Virus record (IMG/VR): IMGVR_UViG_3300012971_000018
Location: 1-64,000 of that record
DNA length: 64,000 nt
DNA from: a virus
Direction: 5' to 3' (one strand)
This document shows, one piece after another, positions 53,447-60,838 of this stretch (position 1 is the stretch's first letter; every line of letters begins with the position of its first letter). The notes beneath the pieces are model-generated. The model was not told the DNA's origin. It did not search any database and saw nothing but the letters and a program-made list of their open reading frames with translations. The position numbers and the translations under genes were made by a program.

Positions 53447-55336
53447 ATGATTACACTTATGGTGGGTTCGGTGGACGAGGCGCTCTGTCGGGGCGTCGCG
53501 CTCCTGCGCAAGGTCGGCGTAAAGCAGACGTCCCGGGCCGGCGATGTGTGGGTCGCACCCAGCCCGGTTACGACGATCTTCCACGATCCGGTAAAGCGGG
53601 TGCTGTTTAATGCGCATCGCGATGCCAATCCGTTCTTCCATCTGTTCGAAAGCCTGTGGCTGCTGGCCGGTCGCGACGATGCTACGTGGCTGGACCAGTT
53701 TGTCGGCGACTTCTCTTCGCGCTTCGCCGAGAGCGACGGAGTGCTCCATGGTTCCTACGGCCACCGGTGGCGGGAGGCGCTCGGCCTCGACCAGCTATTT
53801 GAGGTCGTGGAGAAGCTAAAGGCCAACCCCGACGATCGGCAATGCGTCCTCCAGATGTGGGACGCGCGGGACGACTGGCACGCGGATGGAGAGTATTCCG
53901 CGCACTCCGGATGCAACGATTTGCTAGGCAATTGGAAGGATCGGCCGTGTTTGGCGGGGGATACCGTTGTGTGGTCGCCCGAGGGGGACCTTCCTATTGC
54001 TGCGTTGGCGGAAAAGTTTGCGGCTGGTGTAAAACGTTGGCCCGTTTATTCCGTGAACGAGATGTCCAAGAAGTTGGAGATAAGGTGGGCTACAAATTGC
54101 TGGAGAAGCGGACGAAGGCGTACTGTAGTTCTAACTTTTGATGATGGTACGTCAATTCGAGCAACAGCGGACCACGTATTTTACGTATATCCTAAGAGGA
54201 TTGGTAGAAATGGGAAGGTAAGCGCCTTGGCGGCAAAACCGTGTCGGGTAGATAAGCTGCGGCCGGGGGATCGGGTATTAGCAACACAGCGGTTTTCCGG
54301 CAAGAAGGGCCACGAGGTAATTAAAAAGTGTTTGGCCGGGAATACGGCCTTTCGCAATATGCAGCAGACGCACAATGCGTATTATCGTCTTGTGTATGGC
54401 TCAATTCCAGAAGATTGTGAGCTTCATCATGTAGACGAAGTTAAGCGTAACAATAAGATCGCCAATTTGGAGCCACTCGATCCAGGAGAACATAGCCGAT
54501 TGCACAAAGTTGGGGATCGAAATCCGATGAGAAACATGACGGCTGCGCAGCACCGAGCGCGTGGTCGTAAGCAGTCGGTGTCGCTAAAGGCTGCTTGGGC
54601 TAAGCTTACTCCGATGCAGCGTGTTGCGAGATCGAAGGGTCTCCCCATAACCAACCACAGGATTGTTAGTATCGGTCCGGGACCGATCGAGGATGTATAC
54701 GATTTTACGGTTCCCGGTTTCCACACTGCAATAGTTGGTACTGGTGTGGTAACTCATAATTGCAACACCCATGCCTACCTTCGGGTTCGGGATGGGCTCT
54801 TGGACCTTACGGTGTGCTGCCGGTCGAACGATATTATCTGGGGCGCATACGGTGCCAATGCTGTGCAATTTTCCATGCTGCAAGAGTACCTCGCGGCGCG
54901 GATCGGCGTCGGCGTCGGCATCTATTACCAGATTAGCAACAACTACCACGCTTACGACAATGTTATCGACTGGAGCTTGGGCGAGAAGAACGCGCTAACG
55001 GATTGGGGGTGGTCGTACCGGGACTTCTGTGTCGAGCCGCTTGCGTTGGTTACCAATCCGGAGACGTTCGACCGGGAGCTGTCGTGCTTCTTTAAGCGGC
55101 CGGAGAGTTTTCTTCCGCTCGATCCCGTCCTTGCCCTGCGCACAGGTGGGCGGAACGAGTACGAGAACTTGTTCTTCCCTCGGGTAGCTGTCCCGCTTTA
55201 CCGCGCCATTCGGACGTGGAAGGACAAAGCGGTAGAGGACCGGAAGAAATTGGCAATACAGGAGTTGGATAGCGCACCAGCCGAGAACGACTGGAAGCTG
55301 GCCGCCCAGCAGTGGATGCAGAAGAGGATTAAATGA
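53447..55336 (+). CDS. dUMP hydroxymethylase (thymidylate synthase fold) with intein
   Basis: SRAG, ANPFF...E, YG.RW, DRQ, spliced DRPCN, RSND..WG..GAN (Asn implies dUMP), N.HAY. Confidence 0.85.
   Translation: MITLMVGSVDEALCRGVALLRKVGVKQTSRAGDVWVAPSPVTTIFHDPVKRVLFNAHRDANPFFHLFESLWLLAGRDDATWLDQFVGDFSSRFAESDGVLHGSYGHRWREALGLDQLFEVVEKLKANPDDRQCVLQMWDARDDWHADGEYSAHSGCNDLLGNWKDRPCLAGDTVVWSPEGDLPIAALAEKFAAGVKRWPVYSVNEMSKKLEIRWATNCWRSGRRRTVVLTFDDGTSIRATADHVFYVYPKRIGRNGKVSALAAKPCRVDKLRPGDRVLATQRFSGKKGHEVIKKCLAGNTAFRNMQQTHNAYYRLVYGSIPEDCELHHVDEVKRNNKIANLEPLDPGEHSRLHKVGDRNPMRNMTAAQHRARGRKQSVSLKAAWAKLTPMQRVARSKGLPITNHRIVSIGPGPIEDVYDFTVPGFHTAIVGTGVVTHNCNTHAYLRVRDGLLDLTVCCRSNDIIWGAYGANAVQFSMLQEYLAARIGVGVGIYYQISNNYHAYDNVIDWSLGEKNALTDWGWSYRDFCVEPLALVTNPETFDRELSCFFKRPESFLPLDPVLALRTGGRNEYENLFFPRVAVPLYRAIRTWKDKAVEDRKKLAIQELDSAPAENDWKLAAQQWMQKRIK
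53948..54760 (+). mobile_element. Intein with in-frame HNH endonuclease (271 aa)
   Basis: CLAGDT start, ATADH block B, HHVDEVKRNN..NL......EH...H, VYDFTV...THN|C end. Confidence 0.92.
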
Positions 55337-57370: not shown

Positions 57371-60300
57371 ATGGGGTTGTTGTATGCGGCCCAGGCTACA
57401 GTCGATGTTAGGGCGCGCCAGGAAGCCGTGCTCTACCAACGGATGGGCTGCAATATGTGCCCGCTTAACGATGTGCAGCCGGGGCGCGCCAATGCGACGG
57501 GTTCGGAGCATCCGCTAATATTATTCATAGGCGAAGCCCCCGGCAAGGAGGAGCAACGGACCGGCGAGCAGTTCGTCGGCGAGTCCGGGCAACTTCTGCG
57601 CCCGCGCATCCCGGAGGAATGGCTGCCGGATATTCGATGGACCAATACTGTTCATTGTCGTCCCTCGTATGGCAACGGCCACAATCGGACCCCCGAGCAC
57701 GACGAGATCGAGTGCTGCCGGCCGCGGTGGGTTGCCGACATCGAACGGACCAAGCCGAAGGCGATCTTTGCTTTCGGTAACGTCCCACTCCTGGCGATTA
57801 CCAACTTTACCGGCATAACGCTGTGGCGCGGGAGGCGGCTGCCGGTAAGGATCGGGTCGCACGTCTGCTGGCTCTATCCCATGCTCCATCCGGCCCACAT
57901 CCTGCGCCAGCGGCGGGACGAGGATCGTGGCAAGGATGCCAGGTTTGTTGGCTCCGAAGAGGAGCGGATGTTCGAGTTCGATCTCTACAAGGCATTGGAC
58001 GAGGTCGACGCCGGACTGCCACGGCCGATCGTCCACGACGAGAAGGAAGCCCGCCGCGGCGTCGAGATTGTAACCGAGGGCGGGCGGGAAGGGCTGCACC
58101 GGATCGAGGCCGCGCTTAGGTGGGCGTCCGCGCAGGACGATATCGGGTTCGACTACGAGACGCTGGGGCTACGGCCGTATGGTGCCAATGCCAAGATACT
58201 TACGGTCGCGGTCGCGACTGCGGACCGTGCGATTGCGTTTCCGATCCACCATCGCGAAGCCCGGTTCTCCGACAAGGAGCGCAAGACAATCGAGGATTTG
58301 GTCTGCAATTTCCTGTGCCAGTCCGGGCGTGTGTGGGTGCATAATCTGTCCTTCGAGATGGAATGGACGGCGGTTAAGTTCGGCCGCGACCTGCTGTACG
58401 CTACGCAGTGGCAGGACACGGCGACGCAGGCTTCCATTATTGACGAGCGGAAAGGCAATACCAAGCCGGGATGCTTTTCCCTCGAATGGCTCGTAATGCA
58501 GTACTTCGGCTTTAACCTTAAGAAGCTGTCCCCGCTAAACAAAGCTAATCTCGACCGCGAGCCGCTGCCAAAGGTGCTCGCCTATAATGCGATGGACGCC
58601 AAGTACCATCTGCGGCTTGGGCTGGAGCAGCAGGTAGTCATAAAGCAGCAGGGTCTGCAATCGGTCTACGAGCTGTCGTTGCGGCGGGTGCCGGCGGTCG
58701 TTACGTCGCAGGTCCTGGGCGTGCCGGTCGACCAGGACGAGAACGAGCGTCTGCACGCCAAGTACGCCAAGCGGGTCGCCAGCCTGGAGGCCGAAATCCA
58801 GCAGGTGCCGTTAATCCAGGGGTACAACAGCGACAACGCCGAGCCGTTTAACCCCGGCTCGAACCCGCAGTGCGTCGACGTTTTCTATCGGCGGCTAAAG
58901 CGCAAGGAGTGTCTGGTCGTCGACAAGTTCTCCAAGCGGGAGCGGCTGTCCTGCAATGAAGACGTACTAACCAAGATCGAGCACCCGCTGTCGAAGCTAA
59001 TCGTCCGCTGGCGCAAGGCGAAGCGGCAGGACTCGACCTACATCCAAGCATTGGCCCCGGGGACCGAGAATTCGGCGCTGTGGCCCGACGGTCTTCTGCA
59101 TAGTACGTTCAACACTTACTGGGTCGAGACCGGCCGGCTAAGCTGCTCGGCCCCTTGGACCGAGGTTAAGACCAGTCGTGGTGTGGTCCAGATCAAGGAC
59201 GTTATTGCAGGCGATTTGGTGTGGACCCACAGACAACGCTGGCGTTTAGTTACGCGGGCTTGGAGCAAAGGCTTCGAACAGATGTTCGACGTTGTATTGT
59301 CTAATGGGAAAGTTTTGACTTGCACCAAAAACCACCGTCTGCTATCCAAGGCCAGTGGCTGGATAACGGTTGGAGAGTTGTATGACGTATTCCAAGAGAT
59401 GGGTCGAGACGCCGGGGAATATAAAGCGCGTACTGGCGCTTTATCGCAGCAAGGAGTTGGTTCCAACAGAGCAGATAGCCAAGACGTTGGGCACATCGGT
59501 ACCAAACGTCTACGAGGCTATCAAACGGAACATGCCATTGGTCGAGAAGCAGGCTCTATCATCTGTTCGCTATTCGGCATCGAAGCTGGGCACAAAAAAT
59601 CCGATGCTGGGGCGAACTGGAGATCGGCATCCGAATTGGAAGGGGGAATGTTTGGATGGTCATGGTGGTTATTTGACCATAAAGGTTGGAAAGCGTCGTA
59701 TTTTTCTCCACCACCACTTGCTTATGCAGGCATTGGGTCTACCAGAAGTCCCACGCGGTTGGATGGTACACCATATCGATGGCGACCCGTTGAACAACGA
59801 CGTGGACAATTTGGCTTTGGTGACGGCTCGCGGACACAAAGCTATCCACTACAGACAGTTGGAGACCAAGACGTTGCGATTAAAGAAATCAAAGCTGGCG
59901 GAAGCTTTGAAGTATTTGATCTAACAGTAGAGGAGGACGCCAGCTATGAGACCTGTGGAGTATTTTCGCACAATAGCGAATTTCCAAACCTTCAGAATTT
60001 CCCGAAGCGCGACGGCGAGGCCGTCGAGGTCCGCCGGCAGGTCCAGGCCGCCCCTGGATATAGTATCATATCTCTGGACCTGGGCCAGATCGAAGCCCGT
60101 GTCGTCGCGATGTTTACCAAGGACCCGGTCTATGTAAAGCAATTGTGGGACAAGTTCGACATCCACAAGGATTGGGCCGAGCGGATCGCTTTCGCCTATC
60201 CGGATCGGATCGGCGGGTCGAAGAACCTAAAAGACCCGAAGGTAATGAAGACCTTTCGCAGTGACATAAAGAACCAGTGGACCTTCCCTCTGCTCTACGG

Positions 60301-60838
60301 TGCATCGTGCAAGTCGGTGGCTGGTTCTCTAAGCATTCCCGAGGACAAGCTAACGCCGCTGTACGACCAGTTCTGGAGCGAGTTCTCGACGGTAAAGAAA
60401 TGGCAGGAGGACCAGCTAAGGTTCTACCGTCGGCACGGCTATGTGGAATGCCTAACCGGCCGTCGGCGCCACGGTCCGCTGTCCCTTAACAAGGTCTACA
60501 ACACCCCGGTCCAGGGCACCGCAGCCGAGATAATCATGGACCGTATGTGTTACATGGTCGAGAGCGGCGATCCCGAGCTGCTGCCCGAGCTGCAAATCCA
60601 CGACGATCTAACCTTCCTGCGGGTGCGGGAGGAACGGGCCGAGGAAGTCGCGGGGAAGATATTGGACATTATGCTGGACCTGCGGCACTTCCCATGGGTG
60701 AACGTGCCGATATCCGTCGAGGTGGCAACCGGCTTTAACTGGATGCCTTGGGACAAGGACAACAACCCGGAAGGGCTAAGGGCGATGCCGGAAAGCTATT
60801 TCTCGAACGAGTGGCTAAAGGCGAGAGGAATAACATGA
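57371..60838 (+). CDS. polA: Family A DNA polymerase with N-terminal family-4-like uracil-DNA glycosylase domain, 3'-5' exonuclease and intein
   Basis: C..CPL, IGEAPG..E...G..FVG.SG, HPA; FDYET, HNL.FE, YNAMD; spliced TGRLS|SEFPNLQN, DLGQIEAR, R...K....F...YG, NTPVQGTA, IHDD. Confidence 0.92.
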   Translation: MGLLYAAQATVDVRARQEAVLYQRMGCNMCPLNDVQPGRANATGSEHPLILFIGEAPGKEEQRTGEQFVGESGQLLRPRIPEEWLPDIRWTNTVHCRPSYGNGHNRTPEHDEIECCRPRWVADIERTKPKAIFAFGNVPLLAITNFTGITLWRGRRLPVRIGSHVCWLYPMLHPAHILRQRRDEDRGKDARFVGSEEERMFEFDLYKALDEVDAGLPRPIVHDEKEARRGVEIVTEGGREGLHRIEAALRWASAQDDIGFDYETLGLRPYGANAKILTVAVATADRAIAFPIHHREARFSDKERKTIEDLVCNFLCQSGRVWVHNLSFEMEWTAVKFGRDLLYATQWQDTATQASIIDERKGNTKPGCFSLEWLVMQYFGFNLKKLSPLNKANLDREPLPKVLAYNAMDAKYHLRLGLEQQVVIKQQGLQSVYELSLRRVPAVVTSQVLGVPVDQDENERLHAKYAKRVASLEAEIQQVPLIQGYNSDNAEPFNPGSNPQCVDVFYRRLKRKECLVVDKFSKRERLSCNEDVLTKIEHPLSKLIVRWRKAKRQDSTYIQALAPGTENSALWPDGLLHSTFNTYWVETGRLSCSAPWTEVKTSRGVVQIKDVIAGDLVWTHRQRWRLVTRAWSKGFEQMFDVVLSNGKVLTCTKNHRLLSKASGWITVGELYDVFQEMGRDAGEYKARTGALSQQGVGSNRADSQDVGHIGTKRLRGYQTEHAIGREAGSIICSLFGIEAGHKKSDAGANWRSASELEGGMFGWSWWLFDHKGWKASYFSPPPLAYAGIGSTRSPTRLDGTPYRWRPVEQRRGQFGFGDGSRTQSYPLQTVGDQDVAIKEIKAGGSFEVFDLTVEEDASYETCGVFSHNSEFPNLQNFPKRDGEAVEVRRQVQAAPGYSIISLDLGQIEARVVAMFTKDPVYVKQLWDKFDIHKDWAERIAFAYPDRIGGSKNLKDPKVMKTFRSDIKNQWTFPLLYGASCKSVAGSLSIPEDKLTPLYDQFWSEFSTVKKWQEDQLRFYRRHGYVECLTGRRRHGPLSLNKVYNTPVQGTAAEIIMDRMCYMVESGDPELLPELQIHDDLTFLRVREERAEEVAGKILDIMLDLRHFPWVNVPISVEVATGFNWMPWDKDNNPEGLRAMPESYFSNEWLKARGIT
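59144..59974 (+). mobile_element. Intein (277 aa) with no in-frame endonuclease
   Basis: CSAPWTEV start, CTKNH block B, VFDLTV...SHN|S end; removal restores GRLSS.PNLQN. Confidence 0.92.
59382..59924 (+). CDS. HNH homing endonuclease in the +1 frame inside the PolA intein
   Basis: GGAGAG RBS then ATG; HTH-like IAKTLGTS..NVY, KNPM.G..G..HPNWKG, GY, H, VHHIDGDPLNN..DNL.......H...H. Confidence 0.88.
   Translation: MTYSKRWVETPGNIKRVLALYRSKELVPTEQIAKTLGTSVPNVYEAIKRNMPLVEKQALSSVRYSASKLGTKNPMLGRTGDRHPNWKGECLDGHGGYLTIKVGKRRIFLHHHLLMQALGLPEVPRGWMVHHIDGDPLNNDVDNLALVTARGHKAIHYRQLETKTLRLKKSKLAEALKYLI

Follow-up and report, generated by a model that had tools for sequence, protein, structure and literature searches.

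The first 64,000 nucleotides (nt) of IMG/VR virus record IMGVR_UViG_3300012971_000018 (the window; the record is complete, viral, 111,906 bp long and has direct terminal repeats) contain a family A DNA polymerase (PolA) gene with an in-frame insert in its conserved motif, between TGRLS and S. The insert has the anatomy of an intein, and within its middle lies a second gene, read in the +1 frame, for a protein of the HNH homing-endonuclease type. We read it as a mobile, non-canonical intein, ie a mini-intein-like Hint domain in PolA which carries a homing-nuclease gene in another frame of its own DNA, and give this a probability of roughly 0.8. The features are listed below in order of position (ORF, open reading frame; aa, amino acids; AF2, AlphaFold2; pLDDT, predicted local distance difference test score; UDG, uracil-DNA glycosylase).

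57371..60838, + strand: host gene, fused UDG (family 4-like), 3'-5' exonuclease and family A DNA polymerase, with a precursor of 1155 aa; from the ORF list.
59129..59143, + strand: N-extein side of the insertion site, coding for T-G-R-L-S of the conserved PolA motif; from translation, with an identical junction in 39 related loci.
59144..59974, + strand: class-1 intein, 277 aa, Cys1 to terminal His-Asn; from blocks read in the sequence, homologue conservation and the AF2 model.
59144..59398, + strand: N-terminal splicing (Hint) part, intein residues 1-85, with block B TCTKNH; pLDDT 94-98, beta-rich, 35-60% identity across loci.
59372..59377, + strand: Shine-Dalgarno-like GGAGAG, which also codes for Gly-Glu of the intein motif V-G-E-L; from sequence.
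59382..59924, + strand: overprinted HNH homing-endonuclease gene, +1 frame, 180 aa, ATG to TAA; from Pfam, homologues and AF2.
59411..59875, + strand: intein-frame linker, residues 90-244, an alternative-frame read of the HNH gene; low pLDDT, identity at the non-coding level.
59876..59974, + strand: C-terminal splicing part, intein residues 245-277, with blocks F and G; pLDDT 87-97.
59975..60004, + strand: C-extein side of the insertion site, coding for S-E-F-P-N-L-Q-N-F-P; from translation.

The host frame is unbroken over its 1155 codons. The product matches DNA_pol_A (E 2.9e-52), UDG (3.5e-22) and DNA_pol_A_exo1 (3.8e-8) in Pfam, and the 277 residues of the insert divide the DNA_pol_A match. 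Cys1 is encoded by TGC at 59144. Block B is TCTKNH, in which T-K-N-H are residues 61-64, block F is VFDLTVEEDASY, within an insert that holds V-F-D-L-T-V-E-E-D, and the intein ends with S-H-N (H276-N277) at 59974, followed by Ser at 59975 as the +1 residue. Across 37 homologues C1, H64, D259, H276 and N277 are invariant and T61 nearly so (at least 90%), and each of the 39 distinct full-length loci has Ser or Cys directly after the intein. The AF2 model, made from a 37-sequence alignment, gives pLDDT values of 94-98 to residues 1-85 and 245-277, and values below 50 to most of residues 91-240 (block means 41-55), where secondary structure is nearly nil. Foldseek matched the model to the mini-inteins Ssp DnaB, gp41-1 and Npu DnaE, each at a probability of 1.0. 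In Pfam, the intein-frame product yielded only sub-threshold matches, to Intein_splicing (26.6 bits, against a gathering cut-off of 35.8) and to Hint. On sequence and model, the insert has the nucleophile, the blocks, the Hint fold and the in-frame site of a class-1 intein, and is predicted to splice.

Composition sets the insert apart from its surroundings. Its GC content is 51%, compared with 61% in the N-extein and 57% in the C-extein, and TGA and TCA occur 9.7 and 6.0 times per kb, against 3.3 and 2.8 in the window and 1.1 and 2.3 in the polA N-extein. These values mark the element as foreign in composition. The intein also escapes the driver of the genome-wide avoidance of TGA and TCA.

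The protein of the +1 frame has an N-terminal helix-turn-helix, a NUMOD3-like segment (SK.G.KNPM) and a C-terminal HNH unit. It matches Pfam HNH_3 (E 2.3e-11, 43.5 bits against a cut-off of 24.8) and, weakly, HTH_23. Twenty full-length database homologues, 177-193 aa long, are 39-56% identical to it, and the residues invariant in the family (H130, H131, N138, N139, H152 and H156) are all kept. The AF2 model of this protein (pLDDT 75) has a confident four-helix N-terminal domain like sigma region 4, a poorly ordered NUMOD3-like linker, and strands at 127-131 and 144-148 followed by a helix, ie the beta-beta-alpha unit of HNH enzymes. At E <=0.001, Foldseek found nothing in the PDB that matches the model; the weak matches were to helix-turn-helix domains of sigma region 4 and to I-HmuI (E 0.87). 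The first-pass annotation, made from the letters of the window, had described a complete PolA intein at 59144-59974 and an intact 180-aa HNH protein in the +1 frame at 59382-59924 with its own ATG and GGAGAG. Blocks, junction residues and coordinates are all in place, and the HNH_3 match agrees with the second part of that description.

The layout is not peculiar to the window. IMG/VR was scanned with the HNH protein and the best 80 of 141 loci were examined. Of these 80, 53 (referred to here as nested) have an HNH gene that lies wholly within a longer ORF, of 430-2045 aa, read in the frame one base behind its own, and the +1 offset is identical to that of the window in every one. Wherever the exteins could be identified, by extein BLAST or Pfam, the host is a family A DNA polymerase. 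All 39 distinct full-length loci have the junction ..TGR(L/T/M)S, then an intein of the form C....SHN, then (S/C)..PN.QN.P; their inteins are 245-299 aa long, and the HNH start minus Cys1 is always 1 modulo 3. Two contigs of metagenome-assembled genomes, binned as Planctomycetales and Rubritepida, have the same layout. A single-sequence search with the intein N-domain returned one locus only, and no HNH-less mini-intein at the PolA site turned up in it.

The window is a single assembled metagenomic record, in which two compensating indel errors might have shifted an ordinary in-frame HNH domain of an intein out of register. The first-pass annotation had named reads or homologues with such indels as a finding that would refute it. 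All 47 distinct nested sequences, which come from independent samples, have the +1 offset of the window, and an offset common to related loci rules out a pair of compensating sequencing errors. The HNH frame is moreover bounded by stops on both sides, gene callers report free proteins of 177-193 aa in other data sets, and a search of longer proteins found no in-frame fused HNH form, which is weak evidence. We give a sequencing artefact practically no credence.

Several observations were made alongside. The PolA of L053:1593-5258 has two inteins, with an out-of-frame HNH at the usual site and an in-frame HNH_3 (residues 807-850) in the downstream one, and L034:3-6137 is a 2045-aa open PolA frame with an overprinted-HNH intein and an in-frame LAGLIDADG_2 element (residues 412-569). 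L178:1511-4375 is a 954-aa host ORF of no identified family with a related splicing domain (41% identical); it contains a different HNH_3 ORF of 222 aa (L178:2715-3383), again in the +1 frame, on a high-GC contig where open frames are less telling. The polymerase N-terminus of the window gene (57371-57950) is fused to a uracil-DNA-glycosylase-superfamily domain, and L027 has the same fusion.

Two open frames over the 543 nt of the HNH gene are not a matter of chance. None of 20,000 permutations of synonymous codons that preserve the HNH protein left the polymerase frame open, and none of 20,000 codon-order shuffles of the HNH ORF did; an analytic estimate from the ORF's own use of T in the third codon position, over 37 at-risk sites, is 5e-8. 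The figure of about 1e-4 from which the first-pass annotation argued that dual coding is selected was therefore conservative. An at-risk site is one where a host-frame stop arises only if an HNH codon ending in T precedes a codon starting with AA, AG or GA. In the 47 distinct nested HNH genes, codons ending in T occupy 0 of 1,699 at-risk sites, compared with 28.9% of positions elsewhere. In the non-nested relatives (n = 21) the two proportions are 48.9% and 48.6%, and the host-equivalent frame has 21 stops per ORF. The complete absence of T at the at-risk sites means that the host frame is held open purely by synonymous choice, with the HNH protein unaffected. As an alternative cause of the open frame, genome-wide depletion of TGA and TCA fails: at 23 of the 37 at-risk sites the stop avoided would be TAA or TAG, and the HNH stretch has 10 stops in its third frame.

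The two frames differ in what is conserved. Pairwise nucleotide divergence at HNH codon positions 1, 2 and 3, from a codon alignment of 39 nested genes, is 0.45, 0.38 and 0.60; purifying selection on the +1 frame, the lack of which the first-pass annotation would have taken as telling against dual coding, is thus present. The HNH-frame products are 45% identical and the intein-frame products 24.5%, against 25.1% in the non-coding third frame and the 22% predicted from HNH conservation alone. The middle of the intein, already described as free of endonuclease motifs and resembling an off-frame translation, is in this respect at the non-coding level. Over the last 10-18 HNH codons, where the tail of the gene had been noted to overlap block F, the constraint switches: intein-frame identity rises to 0.43-0.55, as high as or higher than that of the HNH frame, and the codon-position bias vanishes. 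This stretch (59876-59924) encodes the HNH tail and the intein strands before block F, and both frames matter; in some relatives the HNH stop lies just 8-11 nt before the intein end. An 8-bp inverted repeat, TCAAAGCT..AGCTTTGA, is found at 59889-59910, just 5' of the HNH stop and within the doubly coding stretch. As judged from the alignments and the model, purifying selection acts in the HNH frame, and the middle of the intein frame is a passenger kept free of stops and predicted to be disordered. The offset shared by the 53 loci and the synonymous avoidance of stops bear out the earlier proposal of an overprinted, separately encoded HNH gene with both frames kept open by selection.

Translation of the HNH gene would most economically begin at its own start. 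GGAGAG lies 4 nt 5' of the ATG at 59382 (GGAG ends 6 nt before it), the aligned first residue is encoded by ATG, GTG or TTG in 39 of 39 distinct full-length loci, and a GGAG, GAGG or AGGA core is present at -18..-5 in 27 of the 39, compared with 15% of background windows. A programmed +1 ribosomal frameshift near 59380 could instead produce the nuclease, with no internal start, as a fusion to the N-extein and N-terminal intein part. One mRNA carries both frames, and the HNH frame is open upstream of the ATG, for 5 codons in the window and for up to 83 in some relatives. Against such a frameshift stand the start codon found exactly at the aligned first residue and the frequent Shine-Dalgarno-like core; in most loci a stop 0-22 codons upstream shuts the HNH frame, and the upstream sequences inspected revealed no slippery motif that is conserved. 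We consider a frameshift quite improbable and favour independent initiation at ATG 59382.

The distribution of the element among polymerase genes speaks for its mobility. Mean identity is 43% for the splicing parts of the inteins and 45% for the HNH proteins, against 23-27% for the flanking exteins, and in 589 of 595 pairs the exteins are less similar than intein and HNH. HNH identity correlates with that of the splicing domains with a Spearman r of 0.65, compared with 0.07-0.29 for the exteins. In the 12 closest PolA relatives (33-50% identical) the site is uninterrupted and without an insert, and 7 of the 12 keep the exact form TGRLS-(S/C)..PN.QN. Covariation, empty sites and foreign composition make up the pattern that would be expected of an element moving horizontally as one unit.

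The mobile-intein reading would work as follows. Ribosomes translating polA would read straight through the insert; intein residues 1-85 and 245-277 would fold as a Hint domain, with the roughly 155 residues between them as a disordered loop, and class-1 splicing (Cys1, TxxH, terminal HN, Ser+1) would restore the polymerase motif. Other ribosomes would initiate at ATG 59382 behind the GGAG and make a free 180-aa helix-turn-helix, NUMOD and HNH endonuclease. In a mixed infection this enzyme would nick or cut an intein-less polA near the conserved sequence coding for RLSS..PNLQNIP, and recombinational repair would copy intein and nuclease gene together into the broken allele. Since any host-frame stop would cut short a polymerase that the phage cannot do without, HNH codons ending in T would be shunned before AA, AG and GA, at no amino-acid cost.

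The relatives of the nuclease point to the probable target. Among cultured phages the nearest (34-41% identical) lie in PolA group I introns of Providencia PS3, E. coli PhAPEC7, Xanthomonas phiL7 and Phormidium Pf-WMP3. The window protein is 34% identical to I-PfoP3I, the Pf-WMP3 enzyme, over 140 aa (E 2e-18) and 34% identical to phiL7 gp45 (E 6e-30), and by these comparisons belongs to the same HNH_3 lineage; nuclease activity is predicted. I-PfoP3I nicks the polymerase gene when it lacks the intron; the nick falls 4 nt upstream of the intron site, and a recognition sequence of 14 bp adjoins it (PMC3428280). The group I introns interrupt ..RLSSS.P(NL)QN.. before QN, 4-7 codons downstream of the intein site, and many of the non-nested IMG/VR relatives are likewise flanked by PolA exons. 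By analogy, the C-extein segment 59975..60004 is likely to be part of the target of the window nuclease. I-PfoP3I and phiL7 gp45 (PMC3428280) are homologous proteins with the same unusual C-terminal HNH, and their vehicles also lie in the PolA motif RLSS..PN(L/I)QN. Their vehicle is an RNA-splicing group I (IA2) intron with many stops in the host frame, whereas that of the window element is a protein-splicing intein in which the host frame is held open.

With such relatives in the same PolA motif, the insert might itself be a group I intron carrying an HNH gene, the open polymerase frame being incidental. In the window insert the intein blocks are complete, the catalytic residues are those invariant in the family and the Hint fold is modelled with confidence, and the host frame is open in 53 loci, as against about 21 stops in that frame for the intron-borne relatives. 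An uninterrupted host frame and a full set of intein features make a group I intron at this site very unlikely, at a level at which we do not take it seriously. Rfam gave no group I intron match in the window at E up to 1, a result which is uninformative because the search also missed the annotated introns of PS3, PhAPEC7 and phiL7. As a more general observation, Rfam 15 at its gathering threshold missed the annotated ORF-containing PolA introns of these phages (L082, L083 and L085), and negatives of this kind weigh little.

In a maximum-likelihood tree of the HNH proteins, the nested and the intron-borne or non-nested sequences form two groups, each with a Shimodaira-Hasegawa-like approximate likelihood ratio test (SH-aLRT) value of 99. 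The tree has no root, and gives no direction of transfer between introns and intein. The sole exception to the division is L043:1800-2785, a non-nested 156-aa HNH inside the nested clade; it adjoins a fragment of a PolA N-extein on the opposite strand, ending ..TGRTAS, near resolvase- and integrase-like genes, and looks like a rearranged remnant. We think there is an even chance that one polA-targeting HNH lineage has used two self-splicing vehicles at one motif, group I introns (I-PfoP3I, phiL7 gp45, PS3, PhAPEC7) and, 4-7 codons upstream, a mini-intein. Capture by the intein would have happened essentially once, the nested proteins being one clade, and would have been viable in the +1 register since choosing C for T in third positions avoids every host-frame stop; intein and nuclease would then have spread as a unit over very divergent phage PolA genes. 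The suggestion in the first-pass annotation that free HNH genes capture mini-inteins gains support from these intron-borne relatives at the same PolA motif.

Some points weigh against a mobile intein of this kind. Translation from ATG 59382, splicing, nuclease activity and target specificity are all predictions from sequence. The viral loci are mutually related, and their counts are not counts of independent events. The Shine-Dalgarno-like motif is made of conserved intein codons, V-(G/E)-E-(L/I), and its conservation may owe nothing to initiation. A promoter scan and RNA folding around the internal start revealed no promoter-like site and no significant structure beyond chance. Insertion between RLS and S leaves an I-PfoP3I-type recognition sequence intact in the C-extein, and the escape of intein-containing alleles from cutting is unaccounted for.

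Some of these points would suit a different history, in which the HNH ORF of this phage is a recent relic and the intein, its nuclease no longer made or no longer active, passes down vertically and is in effect a mini-intein whose linker is junk. Expression and activity of the HNH protein in this phage are predicted only, and neither a promoter-like site nor a regulatory RNA structure lies near its start; stages of this sort are predicted by homing-cycle theory, and L043 is one rearranged remnant elsewhere. The ORF in the window is nevertheless full length, with every family-invariant residue, the start codon and the GGAG intact, and purifying selection in the HNH frame is family-wide. The low GC content and absent TGA/TCA depletion suggest a recent arrival of the intein. 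We regard a relic as unlikely, and the mobile intein with its overprinted nuclease gene as the better account.

An intein with its endonuclease out of frame is not in itself new. The first-pass annotation knew of no description of the arrangement, a statement contradicted by at least three reports. According to papers that cite it, the 1998 account of 'Non-canonical inteins' by Gorbalenya proposed that inteins can have endonuclease ORFs out of frame or antisense to the intein itself. Gosselin et al. (bioRxiv 10.1101/2025.01.02.630785) reported actinophage inteins with an endonuclease VII-like homing endonuclease in another frame. These resemble the window element in being full inteins with a nuclease ORF between the splicing blocks, in another frame of the same strand, and in having an intein-frame middle without a recognisable fold; a free-standing homing endonuclease gene (HEG) was proposed there too as the invader of the intein. 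They differ in the family of the nuclease (HNH_3, I-PfoP3I-like, in our case), in the offset (+1 here, 'frame 3' there) and in the hosts, which are uncultured, mostly high-GC environmental phages here and actinophages there. Phillips, DeSimone & Gogarten (bioRxiv 10.64898/2026.09.14.751524) analysed a cyanobacterial DnaX intein with an out-of-frame LAGLIDADG endonuclease, a case credited also to the 1998 account, and described frame-specific selection and Shine-Dalgarno motifs. Here again an ORF overlaps an intein, with purifying selection in the nuclease frame, a relaxed host frame, a Shine-Dalgarno-like motif and a patchy distribution. The DnaX case is unlike ours in its LAGLIDADG nuclease, its cellular dnaX host and an ORF called '+2', and that study identified no sister lineage in introns at its target.

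Other systems share parts of the layout. In the fractured genes of Dassa et al. 2009 (PMC2677866), free-standing HEGs lie between the halves of split inteins. As in the window, a HEG of free-standing type stands between the N- and C-terminal splicing parts and its 3' end overlaps the C-terminal part, but those host genes are in two ORFs joined by trans-splicing, whereas the host frame here, and in 53 related loci, is continuous. Assignment to the fractured-gene or split-intein class was rejected, the host gene not being broken into two ORFs. Arsenault et al. 2025 (PMC11855218) found a 'hidden' out-of-frame HNH in an insertion in the methylase of phage ShiLan. There too a phage gene has an insertion that keeps its frame and has no stops, and a different frame of the insertion encodes an HNH protein; the ShiLan insert differs in having no splicing domain, is thought to stay in the protein, and no ribosome-binding site was detected. 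The window itself contains a second intein, at about 53948-54760 in a thymidylate-synthase-like gene (53447-55336). It is likewise an intein with HNH_3 in a phage gene of DNA metabolism, but its nuclease is in frame, a domain of the intein polypeptide. Similarity between its HNH_3 domain and the overprinted HNH protein is marginal (E 0.017), and between the two splicing domains no similarity can be detected. In the literature searched we found neither this HNH lineage as an overprinted intein nuclease, nor PolA as host of an overprinted intein at this site, nor a one-rule codon explanation of the +1 register, nor a sister relation to intron-borne nucleases at the same motif.

Intein surveys at the protein level would score this PolA family as endonuclease-free mini-inteins with long linkers. 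Mobile inteins are thereby under-counted, and the 180-aa gene passes for an overlapping ORF with no connection to the intein. The family is also a clean natural experiment on overlapping genes, with selection at the protein level in one frame, and the other kept stop-free by a simple codon rule. It links a lineage of intron-borne nucleases with a characterised member to an intein-borne one at the same motif, which makes the model 'splicing element first, endonuclease invades later' directly testable. If one lineage does use both vehicles, it would be a natural and still-active intermediate of the route by which a free-standing HEG invades a splicing element to give an endonuclease-bearing intein.

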